A DNA stretch of 64,000 nucleotides from Escherichia coli (lineage in GTDB: Bacteria; Pseudomonadota; Gammaproteobacteria; Enterobacterales; Enterobacteriaceae): assembly GCF_044324875.1 (NCBI RefSeq), contig NZ_CP172186.1; one strand, written 5' to 3'. How positions within the stretch are numbered: position 1 is the stretch's first letter; every line of letters starts with the position of its first letter. Below the pieces are notes generated by a model. The model did not search any database. It was not told where the DNA came from and saw only the letters and a list, made by a program, of their open reading frames with translations. Positions 16,918 through 38,570 of this stretch are shown one piece after another. Made by a program: the position numbers and the translations under genes.

Positions 16918-17275
16918 GGAATAAGGACGTCGCCGCCGGCTCCGCTTTTACCCGGCCATGCGGGGCATGGCCTTGTGGGTTTTCAGCTCTGTGGCCTCAG
17001 CGTCGTGTGCGGGCTGTGCCGTGCCTCCATCGTAGCCGGGCTTCTGCGGGCGGGATGCAAGGTAAGATGAACCGCTGCGGTCACCCGGTCCCTCCTTCCC
17101 GTCTGCCGTGATTTTCCGGTCGTTCACCCGCTCAGATTTCGCGGTCTCACCCTCCAACTCCCGTCAGCCGTGCGCGTCGGGCTGCGGCTTTCCTTGCGCC
17201 CTTGCATCCCTGCAGGCCCGGCAAAGATGGAGGCACGGCACCGCCCGGTGTCGCAGAACATGTGACTATGGAGGA
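16918..17275 (+). promoter_or_regulatory. single-strand-promoter-like structured element, family A copy 2 (upstream of ardA)
   Basis: Near-identical to 4688..5040. Confidence 0.5.
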
Positions 17276-17282
17276 TTCGGGA

Positions 17283-17783
17283 ATGTCTGTTGTTGCACCT
17301 GCTGTATACGTTGGAACCTGGCACAAATATAACTGCGGAAGCATCGCCGGCCGCTGGTTTGACCTGACCACGTTTGATGATGAACGCGATTTTTTCGCCG
17401 CCTGCCGTGCCCTTCACCAGGATGAAACCGATCCGGAACTGATGTTTCAGGATTATGAGGGTTTCCCGGGGAATATGGCCTCTGAATGTCATATCAACTG
17501 GGCCTGGGTTGAAGGCTTCCGCCGGGCACGGGATGAAGGCTGCGAAGAGGCTTATCGTCTCTGGGTGGATGATACCGGTGAGACGGATTTTGACAGCTTC
17601 CGCGATGCCTGGTGGGGCGAGGCTGACAGTGAGGAGGCTTTTGCGGTTGAGTTCGTCAGTGATACCGGCCTGCTGGCTGACGTGCCGGAGACGGTGGCGC
17701 TCTATTTTGACTATGAGGCGTATGCGCGGGATTTATTCCTGGACTCCTTCACCTTTATTGACGGTCATGTGTTCCGTCGGTGA
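17283..17783 (+). CDS. ardA: antirestriction protein ArdA
   Basis: 166 aa MSVVAPAVYVGTWHKYNCGSIAGRWFDLTTFDDE...; acidic DNA-mimic, matches recalled ArdA. Confidence 0.9.
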   Translation: MSVVAPAVYVGTWHKYNCGSIAGRWFDLTTFDDERDFFAACRALHQDETDPELMFQDYEGFPGNMASECHINWAWVEGFRRARDEGCEEAYRLWVDDTGETDFDSFRDAWWGEADSEEAFAVEFVSDTGLLADVPETVALYFDYEAYARDLFLDSFTFIDGHVFRR

Positions 17784-17934
17784 TTTACTCCCCCGCTCCG
17801 GCGGGGGTATGGCCTGCCGGGCCGCCGGAAAACCCTGGCAGGCTTACGCCTGCCTGAAATACAGGAGGGCCGCGCCTGCGGCGCTGCCCTTCCTGCCCGT
17901 CATGGTGTGAGGCATTTTTCTGTTTTGTCGTTTC

Positions 17935-18505
17935 TGTTGTTCTGATGCCCGGAGGCGGGGACACCCTTCGGCTCCCGGCTGCCTGGCGGCATCCGGTCGT
18001 CGGCCCGACTCCGACAGGCAGCTGCTGGCGCACCCGCCAGTCTCCGCCGAACCCGCTGGCGCGGTTTCGGGCTGCCGCTACGGTCCGATGTCTGAAAAAC
18101 CAGGCCTGCAGCGACCGTTCCGGTCGCGCCGCCCCTGTCGCGCCGGAAACGGCGCTCCCTGCACACCTGACGGTGTGTAAGGCCACTGCGCCTGATGGCG
18201 CAGTCAACCCTTCCGCCGCCACCCCTGCGGCCTGTTTCCCGCTGTGGACTTTCCGGGGGCTGAAGCGGCCACAACACGGGGCAGCCGTCCAGGGGAGAGA
18301 TGTACCAGCCACAAAACTTTTTGCCGCAGGCGTCAAAAACTTTTGCGTCTGCCCCCGGACAACTGCCCCGTGCCGTGGCAGTCGCTGCCCCATCGGAAAG
18401 GTCCACTGCGGGGAGAAACCCCGAAGAAGTGGACGGCAGAAGGGGCTTTCGCCCCTCCGGGGGAGCAACCGGTCGGCCCGGCGACCTGATTCAGCAGAAG
18501 GAGAC
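17935..18505 (+). promoter_or_regulatory. single-strand-promoter-like structured element, family B copy 2
   Basis: Near-identical to 6290..6875. Confidence 0.5.
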
Positions 18506-18511
18506 GTTTTC

Positions 18512-18946
18512 ATGACAGTCAGCAGCACGATTTCCGTTTTTTGCCGAGACGGGGTGTTCCGTACCGTTTACTGCCACCTGCACGGTGAGCCGACCTGGAA
18601 CGGTCGCATCCTGCATACCCACTATGCCACCGGTCAGCTGGCCGAAGCCCTGGTTGAACACGGAGATATCCGTTGCCTCGGTCCCCGTTGCGACAAACCC
18701 GCCGGGCATACGCTTCAGAACCCGGTGGACGGTGTGACGGCTTATTACGGACGTGACAGTGGTTTCCGGATGGACAGTGAGGCGCGTGAGTACCGTTCTT
18801 TCAGGGAGGCTATTGCCACTGAAAGCACTGAAGAGGTGCGCTTCCATTATGTGTTCATCGACGGCTACTGGAAGGTGATGTACCGCACGCCGGAAGGCTG
18901 GAAGATGAAAGCGCTCGCGCTGGCACTGCGTCGCTGTCCGGAATGA
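18512..18946 (+). CDS. hypothetical protein directly downstream of a family-B element
   Basis: 144 aa from MTVSSTISVFCRDG; GAAGGAGACG RBS; the long 17945..18946 ORF upstream of this start is the repeat element read in frame. Confidence 0.6.
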   Translation: MTVSSTISVFCRDGVFRTVYCHLHGEPTWNGRILHTHYATGQLAEALVEHGDIRCLGPRCDKPAGHTLQNPVDGVTAYYGRDSGFRMDSEAREYRSFREAIATESTEEVRFHYVFIDGYWKVMYRTPEGWKMKALALALRRCPE

Positions 18947-19037
18947 AAAAAAGCAGGGCGATAAACCCTGCCTCTCTCCGCCGCTGCTTCCCGGCCAGGA
19001 AGAGCGGCAGTCATCAACAACATAAGGAGAAATATTT

Positions 19038-19304
19038 GTGAGACCATCAATTATCTTCGCAACCGCCGAGTATGTAAAGCGTCTGCGTGAAGAGTGCCTG
19101 CGGGAGAATAAACCCCTGCACCGCCATACCCGCTTCAGACGTCAGGAGCTGGCACAGGATGAGATTAACCCGGACGTCCTGGCGATGAGCGGTCATATCG
19201 CCAGACGCTGCAGTGAGCAGAAGCGGGTGCGTATCCCCGCCATGAAAGTCAGCGAATGGGGCCACCTGCTCCGCGCGCTTGAAATTGAACGGGTCTGTCA
19301 CTGA
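19038..19304 (+). CDS. hypothetical small protein (GTG start)
   Basis: 88 aa; AAGGAGA RBS 8 nt upstream. Confidence 0.4.
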   Translation: MRPSIIFATAEYVKRLREECLRENKPLHRHTRFRRQELAQDEINPDVLAMSGHIARRCSEQKRVRIPAMKVSEWGHLLRALEIERVCH

Positions 19305-19368
19305 TTAACCCTTGCCGTCTGCCTGTGCAGGCGGCAGGATACGTTCAGACATCTCACCAGGAGGAACC

Positions 19369-20247
19369 GTGAGTAAGAAGAAAAACACCACAACGCCCAC
19401 GCCGCATGATGCCGCGTTCCGGTCGTTCCTGGCGAATCCCGACGTTGCCAGGGATTTTCTGGAGTTGCATCTTCCTGCGGAGTACCGGCAGTTGTGCGAC
19501 CTGTCCACCCTGAAGCTGGAACCCGCCACCTTTGTTGAGCCGGACCTGCATCAGTACGCCAGCGATATCCTCTGGAGTGTGAAAACCACCGGGGGTGAAG
19601 ACGGCTATGTTTATACGCTCATCGAGCACCAGAGCACCGAAAATCTGTACATGCCTTTTCGCATGTTACGTTACAGTGTGGCGGCGATGCAGAGACATCT
19701 GGAGCAGCACAAAACGTTGCCACTGGTCATTCCGGTGCTGTTCTATCACGGTGAGCGCAGCCCGTACCCGTACAGCATGAACTGGCTGGACTGTTTTGAG
19801 AATCCGGCACTTGCGGCTAAAATATACACAAAGCCGTTTCCGCTGGTTGATATCACTGTCGTTGATGACAATGAAATCATGAACCATCGCCGGATGGCCG
19901 CACTGACGCTGCTGATGAAGCATATCCGCCATCGTGACATGATGGAGCTGCTGGACAAACTCCCGCAGGTCATGGTGGAAATTTCAGACGAGCAGGTGCG
20001 TGTTCTGATTCATTACATCGTTAACGCAGGGGACACTGTATCACCGGAATTTATGCGGGCGCTGGCCGAGCGCCTGCCGCAGCATGAGGATAAACTGATG
20101 ACAATCGCAGAACGTCTTGAGCAGAAAGGTGCGCTTGAAAAAGCCCTGGCCATTGCGCGTCAGCTTCAGAAAATGGGGATGACACCTGAGCAGATTAAGC
20201 AGGCCACCGGACTTTCCGAAGCTGAACTGAAAAAAGTCATTCACTGA
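19369..20247 (+). CDS. rpn: Rpn-family (YhgA-like, PDDEXK) recombination-promoting nuclease
   Basis: 292 aa from GTG after AGGAGG RBS; ...TPTPHDAAFRSFLANPDVARDFLELHLP...DILWSVKT...YTLIEHQSTENLYMPFRMLRYSVAAM... typical Rpn N-terminal nuclease domain. Confidence 0.8.
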   Translation: MSKKKNTTTPTPHDAAFRSFLANPDVARDFLELHLPAEYRQLCDLSTLKLEPATFVEPDLHQYASDILWSVKTTGGEDGYVYTLIEHQSTENLYMPFRMLRYSVAAMQRHLEQHKTLPLVIPVLFYHGERSPYPYSMNWLDCFENPALAAKIYTKPFPLVDITVVDDNEIMNHRRMAALTLLMKHIRHRDMMELLDKLPQVMVEISDEQVRVLIHYIVNAGDTVSPEFMRALAERLPQHEDKLMTIAERLEQKGALEKALAIARQLQKMGMTPEQIKQATGLSEAELKKVIH

Positions 20248-20259
20248 TGAGAGCATCAC

Positions 20260-20285
20260 AGCCCGGCAAAATGCCGGGCTTTTTG
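20260..20285 (+). terminator. intrinsic terminator after rpn
   Basis: AGCCCGGCA-AAA-TGCCGGGCT followed by TTTT. Confidence 0.5.
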
Positions 20286-20308
20286 CCAGCAGGAGCAGAG
20301 CAAACAGC

Positions 20309-20527
20309 ATGACGATTGCAGAACGTCTTATACAGAAAGGTTTCGACGAGGGTTTTAAAGAAGGTTTTAAACAAGGTTTTAAACAAGGTTTTAAACAAGG
20401 AGCTCTTGAAGTGGCGCGGGAAATAGCCTGCCGGCTTCGGGATATAGGCTGGTCGCCGGAACGGATTCAGGAGGTCACGGGACTTTCCGGTGAAGAACTG
20501 AAAAAGCTGTTTCCTGATGAGCAGTAG
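20309..20527 (+). CDS. free-standing Rpn C-terminal-tail (RpnS-like) small protein with GFKQ repeats
   Basis: 72 aa MTIAERLIQKGFDEGFKEGFKQGFKQGFKQGALEVAREIACRLRDIGWSPERIQEVTGLSGEELKKLF; parallels the last ~50 aa of the upstream Rpn (MTIAERLEQKGALEKALAIARQLQKMGMTPEQIKQATGLSEAELKKVIH); AGGAG RBS. Confidence 0.65.
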   Translation: MTIAERLIQKGFDEGFKEGFKQGFKQGFKQGALEVAREIACRLRDIGWSPERIQEVTGLSGEELKKLFPDEQ

Positions 20528-20557
20528 CCTGGCATTCAGCCAGGCTGTGAATCACGC

Positions 20558-20809
20558 TCACACATCCTCTGCCGTTTCCCCCAGTTCATTTTCCAGTCGC
20601 CTGATGATATCTGCCTTACGCATCCCCTGCATGTGAGGCAGCAGGTCACGGACTGAAAGTGCCTGGGTGGTCCTCCAGACGGTGACGTCCACCTGTTCCG
20701 CATTTTCCCAGGCGTGCCATGTTCTCTGCGTCACGCCAAATTCTCTGGCCGCTTTTTCGCGTGACCAGAGCATGCTTTTTCGCCAGATTCGCAGTTCCCA
20801 TCCGGTCAT
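20558..20809 (-). CDS. putative helix-turn-helix regulator
   Basis: 83 aa; ...WSREKAAREFGVTQRTWHAWE... HTH-like segment; AAGGTG RBS. Confidence 0.5.
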   Translation of the reverse strand: MTGWELRIWRKSMLWSREKAAREFGVTQRTWHAWENAEQVDVTVWRTTQALSVRDLLPHMQGMRKADIIRRLENELGETAEDV

Positions 20810-20823
20810 AAAACACCTTTGAA

Positions 20824-20908
20824 AAAGTGAAAAAACTTCACTTTATTTTATCATCACAATTGCCAAATCAGCGCGATAAATAAGTGTAAAAAAGTGAAGA
20901 AATTTCAC
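20824..20908. promoter_or_regulatory. two palindromic operator-like sites AGTGAA-N5-TTCACT
   Basis: AAAGTGAAAAAACTTCACTTT at 20824..20844 and AAAGTGAAGAAATTTCACTTT at 20890..20910, upstream of the minus-strand HTH gene. Confidence 0.45.
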
Positions 20909-20989
20909 TTTTTTTGGTTGTAAATGTCGTGCGGTTTTCTCTGTTTTCACCTGTGCGGGAGTGGTGTGCCAGTGACCACCACATGCCAT

Positions 20990-21380
20990 TGTTGTGCCGT
21001 CGTTTTTCTTCAGTCGCGCCGGATGCGGCGCTCCCTGCACACCTTACGGTGTGTAAGGCCACTGCGCCTGATGGCGCAGCTGCCTCTGCCTGTCTGCCGC
21101 CGCACTGCGGCCTGTTCTCCGCAGACGGACTTTCCGGGGGTACATACACGACCACATCCCGTTTCAGTCGTCCAGGGGAGAGATGTACCAGCCACAAAAC
21201 TTTTTGCCGCAGGCGTCAAAAACTTTTGCGTCTGCCCCCGGACAACTGCCCCGTGACGTGGTGAGCGTCCCCCGTCGGAAAGGTCCACTGCGGGGAAATC
21301 CCCGAAGACCCGGACGGCAGAAGGAGCTTCGCTCCTCCGGGAAATGACCTGGCTGACCCGGCAGTCGTGACGATGAGGAG
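20990..21380 (+). promoter_or_regulatory. single-strand-promoter-like structured element, family B copy 3 (3' two-thirds only)
   Basis: Matches the 3' part of 6290..6875 and 17935..18505. Confidence 0.45.
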
Positions 21381-21385
21381 ACAAT

Positions 21386-22237
21386 GTGATGAATCAGACT
21401 TTACCCACTGCTGACCTGAATACTGCCGGCACGACAGATGTTATTCCGTCTGTGGCTATCGACCGCATCATCGCGCAGCGTAACGAAGGTATTGCACTGT
21501 TCATGCAGGCGATGGAATGCCTGGCGACAGCGCGCAGGATTCTGCTCGATGCTTCCGGTGACATTTTTCTCTACGGGTTTGAAGACTGCGTGACTGACTC
21601 CGTTCGATGCATGGATAAACCGGAAGAAGCGAAAAGGAATATCACCCGTCTTGCCGACCGGAAAATCTGGGACCGCCTGATGACAGATACGGGCATGTAC
21701 ACCTTCATGAGTTCATGCCAGCGTGATGAGTGGAACAGCCAGCTGATGAGCGACACCTGTCCTGAAATCACCCTGGACAATGTACTGGCAACATTCCGCC
21801 ATCTTAATGCCAGCAAGATGCAGACATTTGAACAGGGACTGATTGATGTCTACCGGAAATTGTCATGGGATTACAGAACCAATAATCCCTGCCGTCTGGG
21901 CAAGAAAATCATTATTGAAAACCTGCTGTACCGCTGGAGTAACGGGCGTGTGACGCTGGACTGCAGCAGACGGGAGGCACTGGATGACCTGGTACGTCCG
22001 TTTTATCTGCTGGAGGGGCGCAACGTTCCTGACTTCAGGAACAGCATCGGGGCGCAGTATGGTGAATTTCTCAGGAACGGCGACAATGTCGGTAAGTTGT
22101 TAGAAGGGGAATATTTTACGGTGCGTGGCTACCAGAAAGGGACCGTACACATTGTCTTTAAGCGTTCTGACCTTGTTGAAAAACTGAATGATATTATTGC
22201 ACGGCATTATCCTGGTGCATTGCCGCCACGAGTCTGA
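21386..22237 (+). CDS. hypothetical protein directly downstream of a family-B element
   Basis: 283 aa; GAGGAG RBS; hairpin plus T-run at 22248..22280 follows. Confidence 0.6.
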   Translation: MMNQTLPTADLNTAGTTDVIPSVAIDRIIAQRNEGIALFMQAMECLATARRILLDASGDIFLYGFEDCVTDSVRCMDKPEEAKRNITRLADRKIWDRLMTDTGMYTFMSSCQRDEWNSQLMSDTCPEITLDNVLATFRHLNASKMQTFEQGLIDVYRKLSWDYRTNNPCRLGKKIIIENLLYRWSNGRVTLDCSRREALDDLVRPFYLLEGRNVPDFRNSIGAQYGEFLRNGDNVGKLLEGEYFTVRGYQKGTVHIVFKRSDLVEKLNDIIARHYPGALPPRV

Positions 22238-22322
22238 TTAAACAGAAAAGCCCTGGTATTTATGCCGGGGCTTTTTTTTCTGTAATCATCATAATCTCAG
22301 AACACGATGTGACATTGTCACA

Positions 22323-22664
22323 TCAATTGTTGTTCATATCGATGCCATCTTTCCTGCCTGAATCTGTCTTTTTAGGTGCTGTTTTAGAGGAAGAACGGCG
22401 GGATGTTTTTTTCGATTCTGCTTCCCGAATAATGTCACGAAGTGCCTTCTCTCCTACTTCATACCCTGCATTTTTGAGCGTGTCACGAATATCTGCCAGT
22501 GTATAACCCTTTGTCCTTACCAGGACAATAATGTCATCACGAATGGCATCAAGAAAATCACGCAATGTTTTCCGTTGAGCGGTGAGATCTGGCAATTCCG
22601 ATAAAGCAGCTTTTGCCAGCTGGATGTCATCATCTGAGTAAAATTTTTTAGAAGCCATTGGCAC
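22323..22664 (-). CDS. hypothetical protein with basic C-terminal tail, divergent from oriT
   Basis: 113 aa; K/R/S-rich tail ...KKTSRRSSSKTAPKKTDSGRKDG. Confidence 0.5.
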   Translation of the reverse strand: MPMASKKFYSDDDIQLAKAALSELPDLTAQRKTLRDFLDAIRDDIIVLVRTKGYTLADIRDTLKNAGYEVGEKALRDIIREAESKKTSRRSSSKTAPKKTDSGRKDGIDMNNN

Positions 22665-22699
22665 TTTCTCTCCGTTTAATCTTGAAGCCTGATTTTATC

Positions 22700-22885
22700 A
22701 TCAAAAACTGACTCCTGGCAGGGCTGCGCCCTGCCTCTGCCGTCTGCATAAGACTATGATGCACAAAAATAACAGGCTATAATGGCATGAAAAACGGGAC
22801 AGGATGTGTAATCGTATAACCGCGCACGCACGGCTATACGATTACCACCTGGTCAGGGCTTAGCCCCGACACCCCGGTAAGGAGC
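22700..22885. other. oriT: origin of transfer (oriT) region upstream of nikA
   Basis: Intergenic region with inverted repeat GTAATCGTATA...TATACGATTAC (22810..22848) and hairpin GGCAGGGC-TGC-GCCCTGCC; location immediately 5' of nikA. Confidence 0.65.
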
Positions 22886-22890
22886 AGACC

Positions 22891-23223
22891 ATGAGTGAGA
22901 AGAAAACCCGAAGTGGCAGTGAGAAACGGCAAAAGAATGTCCTCATTGCTGTTCGTTTTTCACCAGAAGAGGCTGAGATTGTTAAAGAAAAGGCAGAAAA
23001 AAACGGACTGACAGTTTCAACTCTGATAAGAAAAACTGTGCTGGGAAAACAGATAAATGCCCGCATTGATGAAGATTTTTTGAAAGAGCTGATGCGTCTT
23101 GGTCGCCTGCAGAAGCATCTGTTTGTGGAAGGAAAACGCACGGGAGATAAAGAGTATGCAGAGGTTCTCGTTGCTATTACAGAACTTGCTAATACTCTGC
23201 GAAGAGATTTAATGGGACGCTGA
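22891..23223 (+). CDS. nikA: relaxosome accessory protein NikA (ribbon-helix-helix)
   Basis: 110 aa, size and position as in IncI1 oriT operon; NVLIAVRFSPEEAEIVKEKA... RHH-like. Confidence 0.8.
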   Translation: MSEKKTRSGSEKRQKNVLIAVRFSPEEAEIVKEKAEKNGLTVSTLIRKTVLGKQINARIDEDFLKELMRLGRLQKHLFVEGKRTGDKEYAEVLVAITELANTLRRDLMGR

Positions 23224-23234
23224 GATAATCGCTG

Positions 23235-25937
23235 ATGAATGCCATCATTCCGAAAAAAAGACGCGACGGAAAGTCTTCTTTTGAAGACCTGATTGCGTAC
23301 ACCTCAGTGCGGGATGATGTGCCGGAAGATGAACTCAGACCAGACACGGAAGTGAAAGGTGAGGTTCCGCACCGGAATCGCTTCAGACGTCTTGTTGATT
23401 ATGCAACACGTCTGCGTAATGAAAAATTTGTTTCCCTGATTGATGTGATGAAAGACGGCAGTCAGTGGGTGAATTTCTATGGTGTGACCTGCTTTCATAA
23501 CTGTTTGTCTCTTGAATCTGCGGCTGAAGAAATGCAGAAAGCAGCAGACCTTGCTTATTTTTCCAAAGATGATACAGATCCTGTTTTTCACTATATTCTC
23601 TCCTGGCCTGCGCACGAAAGTCCGCGTTCTGAGCAGCTTTTTGACTGTGTGCGTCACACCCTGAAATCCCTTGAGCTGTCAAAACATCAGTATGTGGCAG
23701 CCGTTCATACAGACACGGATAACCTGCATGTACATGTTGCAGTGAATCGTGTCCACCCTGAAACCGGCTATATCAATTGCCTTCCGTGGAGCCAGGAAAA
23801 ACTCAGCCGTGCATGTCGTGAACTTGAACTTAAGCACGGATTCGCGCCGGATAATGGCTGCTTTGTGCATGCACCCGGCAACCGTATTGTGCGCAAAACA
23901 GCGCTGGTACGTGAGCGCCGTAATGCCTGGCGACGCGGGAAAAAGCAGACGTTCAGGGAATATATTGCTCAGATGTCGATTGCCGGGCTGCGTGAAGAGC
24001 CTGCACAGGACTGGTTATCTTTGCATAAACGGCTGGCCAGCGATGGTCTGTATATCACGATGCAGGAAGGGGAACTGGTGGTGAAGGATGGCTGGGACAG
24101 AGCGCGGGAAGGTGTTGCACTCAGTTCGTTCGGACCGTCATGGACAGCTGAAAAACTGGGGCGGAAACTGGGGGAATATCAGCCTGTACCGACAGATATT
24201 TTCAGTCAGGTGGGGACACCCGGTCGTTATGATCCGGAAGCCATAAACGTTGATATCCGGCCGGAAAAAGTGGCAGAAACGGAGAGTCTGAAACAGTACG
24301 CCTGCCGTCACTTTGCTGAACGCTTACCGGCAATGGCGCGCAATGGTGAACTGAAAAGCTGCCTGGCTGTACACCGTACTCTGGCAGAGGCGGGATTATG
24401 GATGGGGATCCAGCACGGGCATCTGGTACTGCATGATGGATTTGATAAACAACAGACACCAGTACGTGCAGACAGTGTGTGGCCGTTGTTAACGCTGGAA
24501 AATATCAGAAAACTGAATGGCGGCTGGCAGTCTGTACCGAAGGATATTTTTACTCAGGTTGTACCACAAAGTCGCTTTAGTGGGCATCGAATGGATATGC
24601 ATCCGGTCAGTGATCATGAATGGCACAGAATGAGAACAGGGGCTGGCCCACAGGGGGCAATTAAGCGGGAGATTTTCTCTGACAAAGAGAGTCTGTGGGG
24701 ATATGCAGTCAGCCATTGTGCCCGTGATATTCAGTACATGATCTCTGAAGGGCGCTTTAGCTGGCAGAACTGCCATGAACTGTTTGCCCGCAGTGGACTG
24801 ATGTTACAGAAACTGCATCATGGTCTTGTGATTGTGGATGCGTTTAATCATGACCAGACACCGGTTAAAGCCAGCAGCATTCATCCGGATTTGACTTTGT
24901 CCAGAGCAGAGCCGCAGGCCGGGCCATTTGAAATTGCAGCGGCGGATATTTTCGATCGGGTGAAGCCTGAAAGCCGTTATAACCCTGATATGGCTGTCAG
25001 TGACAGTAAGGAACCCGGGTTTAAACGGGATCCTGAATTGCGCCGCCGTCGTCGTGAAACCCGTGCAGCTGCGCGGGAAGATTTGCGTGCGCGTTACCTT
25101 GCATGGAAGGAGCACTGGCGTAAACCCGATTTACGTTACGGCGAACGGTTACGGGAAGTTCATGCTGCCTGCCGCCGGCGCAAGGCGCATATCCGCGTAC
25201 AGTTCAGGGATCCGCAAGTGCGTAAGCTGCATTACCATATTGCGGAAGTGCAGCGAATGCAGGCGCTGATCAGGCTGAAGGAAAGCGTCAGGGAAGAGCG
25301 ACTGTCGCTGATGGCGGAAGGTAAGTGGTACCCGCTGTCTTACAGGCAGTGGGTGGAGCAGATGGCGGTTCAGGGGGATTCTGCTGCTGTATCTCAGTTA
25401 CGTGGATGGAATTATCGCGACAGAAGGAATGATGAGGTGCTTTTAACCACGCCTCAACGCTGTGTGGTTCTTTGTGAACCAGGCTCCACCCCGATTCACA
25501 GGGATATCGGTGGCATGGTGGCGACTTTGCAGCGTAATGGCAGTGTGCGTTTCCGTGATGCGACAACAGGAGAGTACGTCTGTACAGATTATGGTGATCG
25601 CGTTGTTTTCAGCAACAGTGCCGATAACAAAACACTGAAGAAAAGGATGGTCAGGGTGTCCAGTGTGCTTTTTGCAAGGGATCCCCGAATGGGGTTTGAG
25701 CCGGAAGGTCAGGATGCACAATTTAACCGTATGTTTGCTGATATGGTTGCGTGGAAAAACGTGCAGCGGGATGAGCGTAAGGGGCACTACAGGATAAGTC
25801 GTTCTGATGTTGATCAACTGAGGGTCAGTAGTGAAAAACGTTTTCGTGATTATCTTAAAGGGCGTGATACTGAATCACACACTTACCATCATGCAACGGA
25901 TGAAAATAAGTGGGAGCCGCCATCACCGGGGATGTAA
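23235..25937 (+). CDS. nikB: relaxase NikB (MOBP-type)
   Basis: 900 aa; N-terminal relaxase domain with HxDTDNLHVHVAVNRV histidine motif. Confidence 0.85.
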   Translation: MNAIIPKKRRDGKSSFEDLIAYTSVRDDVPEDELRPDTEVKGEVPHRNRFRRLVDYATRLRNEKFVSLIDVMKDGSQWVNFYGVTCFHNCLSLESAAEEMQKAADLAYFSKDDTDPVFHYILSWPAHESPRSEQLFDCVRHTLKSLELSKHQYVAAVHTDTDNLHVHVAVNRVHPETGYINCLPWSQEKLSRACRELELKHGFAPDNGCFVHAPGNRIVRKTALVRERRNAWRRGKKQTFREYIAQMSIAGLREEPAQDWLSLHKRLASDGLYITMQEGELVVKDGWDRAREGVALSSFGPSWTAEKLGRKLGEYQPVPTDIFSQVGTPGRYDPEAINVDIRPEKVAETESLKQYACRHFAERLPAMARNGELKSCLAVHRTLAEAGLWMGIQHGHLVLHDGFDKQQTPVRADSVWPLLTLENIRKLNGGWQSVPKDIFTQVVPQSRFSGHRMDMHPVSDHEWHRMRTGAGPQGAIKREIFSDKESLWGYAVSHCARDIQYMISEGRFSWQNCHELFARSGLMLQKLHHGLVIVDAFNHDQTPVKASSIHPDLTLSRAEPQAGPFEIAAADIFDRVKPESRYNPDMAVSDSKEPGFKRDPELRRRRRETRAAAREDLRARYLAWKEHWRKPDLRYGERLREVHAACRRRKAHIRVQFRDPQVRKLHYHIAEVQRMQALIRLKESVREERLSLMAEGKWYPLSYRQWVEQMAVQGDSAAVSQLRGWNYRDRRNDEVLLTTPQRCVVLCEPGSTPIHRDIGGMVATLQRNGSVRFRDATTGEYVCTDYGDRVVFSNSADNKTLKKRMVRVSSVLFARDPRMGFEPEGQDAQFNRMFADMVAWKNVQRDERKGHYRISRSDVDQLRVSSEKRFRDYLKGRDTESHTYHHATDENKWEPPSPGM

Positions 25938-36296: not shown

Positions 36297-38570
36297 TTAA
36301 TGTCCGGGCCACTCCTGTTGTTCAGTGACGTGATGTGATATTTCTTCTTTAGCTGTAGCCTCATTCTGGAGGTTTGAAGTAAATATACGCTCCATTGTTT
36401 GTGCAACCGATGGTGGCATTTTTTCTTCCACACGTTCCTCTTCCGGACAACTCTGTGTGATATAGCATACGTGCCGTTCTTCCCGGGATGTGGTATTGAT
36501 GATGTGAACTGCCTTGTTCCACAGGCTGTTTCCCCGGGCAGAGATATCTGTATCATATTGCGGAAGCAGATCCAGCGATGTTTGTGTTTCGTTAAGCTGC
36601 TTCTGGAAGGTATCGATGATACGGTAAGGCTCTGTACGGTTTTTACGACGTTTACGGGATGGTTTTGCTGTCAGTACACCAATAATGCTGCTGACATGCT
36701 CCGGTGTGGGAAAACGGCGCTGCACTGTCCTGGGGACGAGACGGCGGAGACGCTCCAGGCGGGGGGCTTCAACGGAAATATAGCGGTTGATGACCACCGG
36801 ATCACTGTCGCAACTTTTCTCGCTGTCCGGAATATACACAGAGGCTGACGGCACCACATCCCCCTGGAAAACGGTAAAGAACTCACCGGCATTCAGTCTG
36901 ATCAAATCCTGCACGTCGATTTTGCTTTCCATCTGGATGGTGATCTGGTTACCGTCCACCCAGGACTCACCCATCACACCATCGTGGCGCTGCAGGCTGC
37001 CCATTCTGGCCCGAGCCTCTTCACCGGCGGCATTTTTCACCGTTCTTGCCGTTTTGTCGTCACTGACAATGCGTCCGGCGAATTTGGTGCCGGCGTTCTG
37101 CATCAGTGTGGCGGTGTTGGTGGCGGAGGTCTGCCCTTCAATTCGCTCCTGATCCTGCGCCATCATTATCAGGGAAAACTCCAGTGAACGTACCTGGGTG
37201 GCCTCCACAGCAATGCGGTCTGTGTAGTAGGCACCGACTTCGTCAAGGATACAGATATAGGGGAAGCGGCCTTTGTATTTTTTTACTTCCAGGGTCTGTG
37301 CGTCTGTGCCTTCCAGGCGGTAGCCCAGGTCACGGGCGAGGATCATGCTCTGCTGGGTGATGAACATACGACCGAGTGCCGACGTGGTATGGGCTGATGT
37401 GTCCAGTGCGGGGATCATCACAATCAGAATTCGGTCGCTGTGGATACTGTCGCGAATATCGATGTCGCCGGCATCTGCCGCAAAGACGTCCCCGAAGGTT
37501 TCGGCAAAGGTTGTGAATGTTTCCGAGAACTGACCGGAGAGATAAGCATGCTGTTTACGGGGCTCCTCAGTCCAGGCTGACGGCGTTCTCACCAGTGACA
37601 TATCGAATCCCGGAACGTCCTGCAGGTAATTTCTCAGTGGTGCGATGGCTTCTTCCGGCCACTGGTCATCAAGCCCACGGCAATAGAGTTTTGCCATACC
37701 TTCCAGCGTCATATGCTCCCGTAACATCTGCAGGGACATGGTTTTTCTTTCCCGGACGCACCAGAATTTTGTGCCAAAGACCAGGGCTTTGTTCATGGCT
37801 ATCGCCCGTGACTGCCATTCACCCCCCTGAACGTTCTGGGGAAGCATGGACTGCATGGTTTCGGCGGTGAAGGCTTCGGTGCTGAATGCGAACGGGTTCC
37901 AGGTGTTTGACTGTGGGCGGGATTTTTCGCCGCTCTGAATGATTTCACTGCGGGATTTTCCGCCGTTCATGAAGTTGATGACCTCGATATCATCCTCCCG
38001 GCCAAAACGTCGGGAGAGATACCAGATTGTCCTCGTGGTATCGTTCTGTGCCTTTCCGTCAACAAAGGTAAAGCCTCTTCCCCAGCAGAGAGGGTTGAGC
38101 AGCCAGGCAAAGGTGGTTTCTGTTTTACCGCCACCGGTGGTGGAAAAAAATATGATATGCCGGGTGAGGTCATCCATGCTCAGCCAGAGCTCACGACCGA
38201 TATCGTTGATACGGCGGTAACCGACATAAAAAATCCCCCGTGCGGGGGATGTTTCATCTGCTTCATACTGAAACAGGGTGGGCCAGAAGCTGAAGAGGCT
38301 TCGCCTGACCTTTCTGTCCTGGGAGGGGTCATCAAGGCTGAGCGTCATGGGCATACGCAGGGGGCATCGCCAGCGTTGCAGCGTGAATATCACGGAGGTG
38401 ACCAGGGTGAACAGCAGACAGACAGGAAGGGCCAGTGGCCATATCAGGGCCGTAATGATACTGCCGGCCAGACACAGACCAATGATGTTCAGGTTGTGCA
38501 GTGCATTCCACAGCGGGTTTCCCCAGGCCGTGCGGTGTATGAGGTCAGGATTAACGTGATGCTGGCTCAT
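36297..38570 (-). CDS. trbC: TrbC, conjugative coupling-type ATPase (N-terminal membrane segments, Walker A)
   Basis: 757 aa; ...FFSTTGGGKTET... Walker A; size/order as IncI1 trbABC. Confidence 0.8.
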   Translation of the reverse strand: MSQHHVNPDLIHRTAWGNPLWNALHNLNIIGLCLAGSIITALIWPLALPVCLLFTLVTSVIFTLQRWRCPLRMPMTLSLDDPSQDRKVRRSLFSFWPTLFQYEADETSPARGIFYVGYRRINDIGRELWLSMDDLTRHIIFFSTTGGGKTETTFAWLLNPLCWGRGFTFVDGKAQNDTTRTIWYLSRRFGREDDIEVINFMNGGKSRSEIIQSGEKSRPQSNTWNPFAFSTEAFTAETMQSMLPQNVQGGEWQSRAIAMNKALVFGTKFWCVRERKTMSLQMLREHMTLEGMAKLYCRGLDDQWPEEAIAPLRNYLQDVPGFDMSLVRTPSAWTEEPRKQHAYLSGQFSETFTTFAETFGDVFAADAGDIDIRDSIHSDRILIVMIPALDTSAHTTSALGRMFITQQSMILARDLGYRLEGTDAQTLEVKKYKGRFPYICILDEVGAYYTDRIAVEATQVRSLEFSLIMMAQDQERIEGQTSATNTATLMQNAGTKFAGRIVSDDKTARTVKNAAGEEARARMGSLQRHDGVMGESWVDGNQITIQMESKIDVQDLIRLNAGEFFTVFQGDVVPSASVYIPDSEKSCDSDPVVINRYISVEAPRLERLRRLVPRTVQRRFPTPEHVSSIIGVLTAKPSRKRRKNRTEPYRIIDTFQKQLNETQTSLDLLPQYDTDISARGNSLWNKAVHIINTTSREERHVCYITQSCPEEERVEEKMPPSVAQTMERIFTSNLQNEATAKEEISHHVTEQQEWPGH

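Follow-up and report, generated by a model that had tools for sequence, protein, structure and literature searches.

A putative autorepressor with a family-wide operator consensus, encoded antisense in the leading region of I-complex plasmids

The C proteins of restriction-modification systems and the Cro/CI repressors are XRE-type dimers of about 80 residues that act on two adjacent palindromic operators in the promoter of their own genes, with concentration-dependent feedback as the result. Aca2 of Pectobacterium phage ZF40 is a small helix-turn-helix (HTH) autorepressor of a mobile element, with two inverted repeats of the form TTCG-N6/8-CGAA in the promoter and the 5′ UTR of its gene (PMC6765145). 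It is about 120 residues long (about 115 to 125) and carries a C-terminal dimerization domain (PMC8434428). In plasmids, ArdK/KorA of IncN pKM101 and IncW R388 provided a precedent for a repressor that is dedicated to leading or establishment genes and works by negative feedback (PMC9723621, PMC3937220). More recently, in 2025, Orf20 (DNDJGHEP_0014), an XRE-like protein of the IncL plasmid pOXA-48, was reported to be essential for maintenance of this plasmid in E. coli (PMC12365149, PMC12361523). Compared to these proteins, the 83-residue HTH protein analyzed here is an uncharacterized XRE-type regulator with a family-wide operator consensus, and the definition of that consensus for the whole protein family is new.

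The window, by which we mean the whole stretch of 64,000 nucleotides that was analyzed, comprises the leading region and the transfer region of an I-complex plasmid. Over its segment 20400–21400, it matches pLH50-c-A (IncK2/Z, MOBP, MPF_I) at 100% identity and IncI1 plasmids at about 99%, one example being TY474p2, which is the second plasmid of Salmonella Typhimurium ST4/74. In conjugative plasmids, leading regions harbor anti-defense and SOS-inhibition genes that are decisive for the establishment of resistance plasmids, and for this reason they are intensely studied. In the current view, the genes of leading regions have a single orientation and are served by single-stranded DNA (ssDNA) promoters. 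On the plus strand of the window, ssb, psiB, psiA, ardA, rpn, a 72-residue open reading frame (ORF) resembling the tail of Rpn, and a DUF4942 gene follow one another toward oriT/nikA (about 22.7–22.9 kb). As the initial annotation had stated, the HTH gene (20558..20809, minus strand, 83 aa with an ATG start in the ORF list) runs antisense to these leading-region genes, being opposite to ssb, psiB, psiA, ardA, rpn, and the DUF4942 gene. It is named ygeA in some IncI1 annotations and Hp21 in pESBL (WP_000148285.1), and the records of both pLH50-c-A and pESBL annotate it as an HTH regulator. The gene was found at 95% or higher nucleotide identity in about 2000 PLSDB plasmids. It represents a conserved exception to one-way leading regions, antisense and dependent on double-stranded DNA (dsDNA), yet placed beside an ssDNA promoter, and it occurs as such in about 2000 sequenced plasmids of the I-complex as well as in related plasmids of the Enterobacterales.

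On the upstream side of the HTH gene lies a Frpo/ssi-like (class 1) ssDNA-promoter element (21013..21261, plus strand), which stands upstream of the DUF4942 gene. It is a direct repeat, with 93–96% identity, of a second such element at 18137–18378; the two copies are 2.88 kb apart, each of them upstream of a leading operon, and plasmid searches gave double matches because the copies are nearly identical. Class 1 elements (ssi1–3) have been described for the IncI1 plasmid pESBL, where they are ssDNA promoters of the early operons and lose their activity upon conversion to dsDNA (PMC12672017). An Rfam scan of 17000–23500 returned sub-threshold chance matches only. The element at 21013..21261 is a neighbor of the HTH module, and its control by the HTH protein is not shown. 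Downstream of ardA and of the first ssi copy, a gene of 144 codons (18524–18958, plus strand) corresponds to Hp16 of pESBL, which has a score of 0.24 for "essential for maintenance." We assume that this gene may correspond to gene "810" of pMS7163B. The latter gene is toxic if over-expressed (PMC10286972).

On the downstream side, a G+C-rich hairpin (20526..20546) is located between the HTH gene and the convergent 72-residue ORF. It folds at −18.5 and −19.6 kcal/mol on the two strands, has no T-run, and was not called in a terminator scan; it is possibly a two-way transcript end. The 72-residue ORF (20309–20527, plus strand), which begins just after rpn and resembles the C-terminal tail of Rpn, matches residues 247–310 of a PHROG transposase family, and Pfam HTH_Rpn_C gives a weak match in the related locus L039. 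It contains a 12-nt tandem repeat (ggttttaaacaa) at about 20346–20399 that encodes GFKQ three times, and its length differs among plasmids (58–72 aa). It looks like a free-standing small Rpn-tail protein.

The initial annotation had described an 83-residue minus-strand ORF with an HTH-like segment. The ORF is present, and the segment is borne out by a match to Pfam HTH_31 over residues 3–40 (E 1.2e-4), followed by HTH_3 (E 0.022). An AlphaFold2 model built from a 25-sequence alignment (pLDDT 90.4) is a bundle of five helices (residues 3–12, 17–24, 28–35, 42–60, and 65–76), with helices 2 and 3 forming the HTH. All Foldseek matches of this model are XRE-type proteins, Aca2 at the top with 28–30% identity and weak E-values, and HipB antitoxins next. 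By its family-profile match and by its fold, the 83-residue protein is an XRE/Cro-C1-type HTH regulator. NCBIfam and PADLOC gave no family above threshold for it; the best NCBIfam scores were weak hints of MqsA and HipB (12.7–15 bits against cut-offs of 62–79), and in PHROGs it fell into phrog_6962 (E 1.8e-13), a family without annotation. When 1.84 billion representatives were searched with the profile, 877 clusters were recovered at E ≤1e-3 and 85 at E ≤1e-10. Members of the family mostly have 75–110 residues and share the signature MTG(Y/W/F)(E/D)L(R/K)LWR. Compared to the 84%-identical variant in L039, the gene shows a dN/dS of 0.07 (with synonymous sites saturated at a dS of 1.35), and it is therefore a real, constrained gene under strong purifying selection.

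Among solved structures, Aca2 (PDB 7vjo/7b5j; homolog 7ezy) was the best match in sequence as well as in fold. The single sequence matched Aca2 with an E-value of 8e-4, and the family profile matched 7ezy with 1.7e-6 over residues 1–65. Aca2 resembles the HTH protein, a putative autorepressor, in that it is small, is encoded on a mobile element, and has a promoter with two inverted repeats. However, the two differ in several features. First, Aca2 is the longer protein, the alignment ends at about residue 65–68 of its 125-residue chain, and the C-terminal dimerization domain is missing in the 83-residue protein. Second, the aca2 gene is located downstream of an acr gene in one operon, whereas no acr gene is found upstream of the HTH gene. 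Third, the repeats found here read AAGTGnA-N5-TnCACTT in place of the TTCG core, and the second site is located about 60 bp upstream rather than in the 5′ UTR. Since the C-terminal domain, the operon position, and the TTCG repeats of Aca2 are all lacking, the protein is not a member of the Aca2 family even though it shares homology in the N-terminal HTH.

Compared to the operators of C proteins and Cro/CI, which are adjacent, those of the HTH gene are 55–67 bp apart. The HTH gene is not followed by a restriction gene in the window, and a search of the PDB with the family profile at E ≤1 returned no C protein. The same search returned no KorA or ArdK chain, and the fold of ArdK/KorA, a KorA-type tri-helical HTH with a dimerization domain, is unrelated (PMC9723621). 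ArdK binds to direct repeats located at the −35 of several of its targets, whereas the sites described here are confined to the gene's own region. ArdK and the AcrIE9/10-associated HTH proteins were rejected as identities, as they are different proteins. A type II antitoxin of the HipB, HigA, or MqsA kind was also rejected because no toxin gene is adjacent: the HTH gene has no co-directional neighbor and is flanked by the convergent 72-residue ORF and the divergent ssi element.

Two AGTGAA-N5-TTCACT palindromes had been noticed upstream of the HTH gene, and both proved to be exact: AGTGAAAAAACTTCACT at 20826–20842 and AGTGAAGAAATTTCACT at 20893–20909. With its A/T flanks, the proximal putative operator (AAAGTGAA-N5-TTCACTTT) spans 20824..20844, its center being 25 nt upstream of the ATG. 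The distal putative operator (AAAAAAGTGAA-N5-TTCACTTTTTT) spans 20888..20914 with its A/T flanks and has perfect arms of 11 nt; its center is 67 bp from the proximal center and about 100 bp from the ssDNA-promoter element. Apart from these two, nothing in the 64-kb window matches at one mismatch or fewer (0.19 expected by chance), and two or more palindromes occurred in one of 100 shuffles. A search for the same palindrome elsewhere on the plasmid, which had been proposed as a check, yielded no convincing further copy in the window or in the remaining 76 kb of pLH50-c-A, the closest complete plasmid, at 0–3 mismatches. In that remainder, one site with a single mismatch lies inside the coding sequence of fdrA, and sites with two or three mismatches occur at chance level.

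The proximal palindrome had been thought to overlap both the ribosome-binding site and the promoter of the gene. The overlap with the ribosome-binding site does not hold, as the palindrome stops 4 nt upstream of the Shine-Dalgarno sequence (AAGGTG, 20814..20819, minus strand), which itself is 4 nt before the ATG and forms a block kept in L039. The relation to the promoter does hold: the palindrome abuts a predicted extended −10 (TGnTAAAAT; TGATAAAAT; 20845..20853, minus strand) and covers the expected start site. Both the Shine-Dalgarno sequence and the −10 were read from the sequence; the promoter in the window has no recognizable −35, and a promoter scan of the window did not call it.

Homologous loci, 36 in total, were collected from records of plasmids and from genomes (one for each species), and all of them belong to the Enterobacterales except two from Gilliamella (Orbales). 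In 25 of these loci, the 160 nt that precede the gene contain the strict pattern AGTG-N9-CACT at least once, compared to seven matches in the other 232 kb of the same loci, several of which are displaced distal copies. The consensus of the family motif, (A/T)AAGTGnA-N5-TnCACTT, persists where protein identity has fallen to about 35%. Even in loci where the protein is 35–53% identical and the intergenic DNA can no longer be aligned, such a palindrome is found just 5′ of the start codon. When 24 distinct proximal sites were aligned on their centers, they gave (A/T)AAGTGCAAT(A/T)ATTGCACTTT, with GTG and CAC invariant. The center of the proximal site is 22–26 nt from the ATG in 24 of 29 aligned loci, and a TAnAAT hexamer ends 10–11 nt upstream of the operator center in at least 14 of 21; the −35 of the relatives is usually T(T/C)GAAA-like, at a spacing of 17–18 bp. 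This position of the −10 relative to the operator center places the expected start site within the operator. When the window is compared to L039, the blocks conserved upstream of the gene coincide with the distal palindrome, the −10, the proximal palindrome, and the Shine-Dalgarno sequence, and the spacer has diverged. The motif also accompanies the gene outside leading regions, as in a Providencia chromosome (L037), in Erwinia (L021), and in L038. The retention of the motif sequence, its distance, and the −10 across distant relatives amounts to phylogenetic footprinting of an operator and not of a terminator.

The second copy is less widely kept in its strict form. It is found 55–67 bp further upstream in seven of the 36 loci (L003, L004, L009, L011, L022, L035, and L039), with one or two mismatches in L014, L020, L023, and L026, and probably also in L018 and L019. 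In L006, variant palindromes are 37 bp apart. The strict motif is missing in 11 of the 36 loci, some of which have other palindromes (L006, L029/L030). At the variable inner position of the half-site, the window has A and most relatives have C, and L039 has a mixture of A and T. A clean covariation of the half-sites (A...T versus C...G) was considered, and it is weakened by the mixed GTGAA/GTGTA sites of L039, which are not always symmetric.

The proposal that the gene is autoregulated through the palindromes is well supported by this comparison, as the motif, its distance from the start codon, and the adjoining −10 are all kept in loci with 35–53% protein identity. The best-supported reading is that the HTH module would work like Aca2, the C proteins, Cro/CI, and HipB, as an autorepressor on palindromic operators. 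Aca2 and HipB, its neighbors in fold and sequence, are both autorepressors at palindromic operators. We consider it likely that the 83-residue protein is a dimeric XRE-type autorepressor that binds (A/T)AAGTGnA-N5-TnCACTT at its own promoter; we infer DNA binding, dimerization, the start site, and repression from sequence comparison. A dimer would bind the palindrome of 17–21 bp, in which 12 bp separate the GTG core from the CAC core, i.e., about one helical turn. Dimers of the Cro/CI type have a half-site spacing of about one helical turn. Natural tandem duplicates with two copies of the HTH domain (P0111 and P0117) are consistent with a dimeric unit.

In the proposed mechanism of autorepression, the proximal operator would begin right after the −10 of the gene's own sigma-70 promoter and cover the start site, so that a bound dimer would block formation of the open complex. 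Such negative autoregulation would hold the HTH protein at a low and steady level. In most relatives, the distal operator is on a helical face similar to that of the proximal one; it probably serves cooperative binding or looping, or else marks a boundary to the adjacent ssDNA-promoter element. Because the HTH mRNA is equal in sense to the transferred strand, transcription of the gene has to await complementary-strand synthesis in the recipient. If the protein regulates only itself, it would be an ordinary small repressor, and autoregulation alone does not reveal its purpose.

In at least 14 loci, the homolog is located 1.5–3.8 kb from a yggA-like gene, and in several of these it is next to nikA/nikB. 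In those loci the homolog shares its strand with yggA, and nikAB, psiA, the hyp267-like gene, DUF4942, and ardA are encoded on the other strand; only L027 departs from this, its yggA-like gene being opposite in strand to the homolog. This strand pattern indicates that the antisense placement is conserved in MOBP/MPF-I leading regions. In the window, the corresponding gene of 113 codons (22323–22664, minus strand) is next to oriT and carries the PGAP label "MobC," although it is actually yggA; it shares the strand of the HTH gene, and in leading-region loci it is always the companion of that gene. Orf35 of pCTX-M3, a YggA homolog, represses nikA, nikB, and traH 23- to 80-fold (PMC6112013). The pCTX-M3 genes orf35 and orf36 were rejected as relatives of the HTH gene, as orf35 corresponds to yggA and orf36 is unrelated.

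The ssi element of the window showed no nucleotide homology to the distant loci in blastn searches. A scan of ssDNA folding took in 16 loci, and in 10 leading-region loci the most stable or second most stable fold of 240 nt within 4 kb on either side is located immediately 5′ of the HTH gene (z −2.3 to −3.1). Such an adjoining strong ssDNA fold is missing from the non-leading loci that were tested. The linkage of the HTH gene to ssDNA-promoter elements is conserved. In L012 (3184–3849), L015, and L033, a cassette encoding a RelE/HigB-like toxin and an HTH antitoxin, with large twin palindromes of its own (TATTCGTACTCAGTACGAATA), is inserted exactly between the distal and the proximal operators, and in L034 the two operators are likewise split by an insertion. 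In all four loci, the distal operator still adjoins the strongly folding element at 835–1112 bp from the gene (about −835 from the HTH start in L012, L015, and L033, and −1112 in L034).

A wider role had been suggested in the initial annotation, namely that the repressor gates leading-region expression once the plasmid is established. ArdK, although unrelated, is the known precedent for such a role. The repressor would be made when the plasmid has become double-stranded, and the twin operators would then silence or insulate the early unit (the ssi element, the DUF4942 gene, and the oriT side), either by repression of a divergent dsDNA promoter with its −35 in the proximal operator or by a block to read-through from the rpn operon. 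The arrangement of the locus is consistent with such a role: the HTH gene can be expressed from dsDNA only, it holds a fixed antisense place 1.5–3.8 kb from oriT in at least 14 loci, in 10 leading-region loci it stands back to back with the strongest or second strongest ssDNA fold, and the distal operator remains on the ssi side despite the cassette insertions. A promoter-like GTGAAA-16-TATCAT on the plus strand (20827–20854) overlaps the proximal operator and is kept in L039. Furthermore, over-expression of several I-complex leading genes is harmful (PMC10286972).

However, several results argue against gating. First, no operator is found before any other leading operon in the window and pLH50-c-A. 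Second, the plus-strand promoter is lost in L009 (TATCAC) and absent from other relatives, and conservation of a divergent promoter does not extend past the closest I-complex relatives. Third, ssDNA promoters turn off at conversion to dsDNA and need no repressor for this. Fourth, in a Himar1 TnSeq study of pESBL, Hp21 (68116–68367, minus strand), whose product is identical to the window protein, scored 1.00 as non-essential, 0.00 for maintenance, and 0.00 for transfer; transposon disruption of the gene altered neither property, and the gene is dispensable for the plasmid under laboratory conditions. In a TraDIS screen of an I-complex plasmid, which may or may not carry the HTH gene, only the replicon and parAB were essential. 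Collectively, these results do not sustain the gating claim, and we regard such a role as unlikely.

Some weight is given to a wider role by pOXA-48. By sequence, Orf20 is the closest characterized relative by descent, a full-length homolog with 31.6% identity and a shared N-terminal MTG(F/W)(D/E)L.LWR; the 83-residue protein carries the signature MTG.(E/D)L..WR...W....AA within this full-length homology. We infer from gene order and descriptions that Orf20/DNDJGHEP_0014 is the protein encoded at L005:4001–4249. The promoter of the Orf20 operon, too, carries a palindrome with A/T flanks, but this candidate operator, ATGTTCA-N4-TGAACAT, is unlike the motif of the window. Orf20 is encoded second in a co-directional operon (orf19–orf20, then a nuclease-like gene), whereas the window gene is monocistronic and antisense, and Orf20 is essential, whereas the identical pESBL copy of the window gene is dispensable.

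The pattern ATGTTCA-N4-TGAACAT occurs exactly twice in the 63.6-kb pOXA-48 (L043, NZ_CP071260.1), at 21845–21862 and 37203–37220, and one of 300 shuffles of this plasmid contained any such site. The first copy is at the orf19–orf20 promoter. The second belongs to the leading region and precedes, by about 45 bp, the promoter of the hyp–ssb operon, which is near consensus (TTGATA-17-TATAAT) and has another inverted repeat (ACGTCTGATGAG...CTCATTAGACGT). The site at 37203–37220 is a candidate remote target of Orf20, and a concrete candidate for a second target site of this protein is new. That an essential relative with about 31% identity has a second copy of its candidate operator upstream of the ssb operon favors gating to some extent. 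It may be imagined, with little confidence on our part, that the HTH gene, the twin operators, and the ssDNA-promoter hairpin form one conserved switch module in MOBP/MPF-I leading regions that locks or insulates the early unit, and that the essentiality of Orf20 reflects a failure to silence the ssb-upstream leading operon. In such a module, the early unit would fire from the incoming single strand, the antisense repressor would be made only after complementary-strand synthesis, and the repressor at the operator beside the hairpin would block read-through, residual activity, or cruciform-dependent firing.

It is rather improbable that the protein resembles Aca proteins or antitoxins in its function and has a partner gene or protein as its real target, the local operators setting only its own level. 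Candidates for the partner would be an anti-defense gene, the convergent pair of Rpn and the small Rpn-tail protein, or genes of the host or of a co-resident plasmid. The closest solved relatives, Aca2 (profile E 1.7e-6) and HipB, point in this direction, as do the weak NCBIfam hints toward MqsA and HipB, the location of the gene amid anti-defense genes (ardA, psiB, and the methylase-like DUF4942 gene), and an rpn gene that is also near the homolog in L031. Against a partner, no conserved ORF precedes the gene in its operon, no toxin gene adjoins it, the C-terminal dimerization domain and the TTCG inverted repeats of Aca2 are absent, and the neighbors vary from locus to locus. The HTH gene is monocistronic, and the only same-strand ORFs upstream of it are not conserved in relatives. 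Many RefSeq records annotate such upstream ORFs as hypothetical (20843–21040 on the minus strand of the window; 3620–3907 in L004), and these extend across the G+C-rich ssi hairpin and the distal operator. The 65-residue ORF at 20843–21040 was considered as an acr-like partner and rejected: it is not kept in the 84% variant L039 or in distant relatives and is therefore probably a spurious call.

That the palindromes are instead intrinsic terminators, acting in one or both directions at the end of the rpn unit or of divergent transcripts, is very improbable. Both palindromes are flanked by an A-run and a T-run and resemble weak two-way terminators, the distal one forming, on either strand, a hairpin of 11 bp with U7 behind it (−9.0/−9.5 kcal/mol, z −2.9/−4.7). 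However, the hairpins are weak overall (−6.3 to −9.5 kcal/mol), their A/T-rich stems have two G-C pairs only and drew no call in the terminator scan, a sense terminator between the −10 and the Shine-Dalgarno sequence would abort the HTH mRNA, the GTG...CAC bases are invariant beyond what pairing requires while the T-run is not conserved (e.g., in L003 and L014), and the motif follows the HTH gene into unrelated contexts; it is the sequence rather than the pairing that is conserved.

The family of the proposed autorepressor also includes proteins of a different build. P0136, P0145, P0159, P0170, and others are 600–1050 residues long and carry 5–8 tandem copies of the same HTH domain, and such many-copy arrays are an unusual architecture for XRE-type domains.
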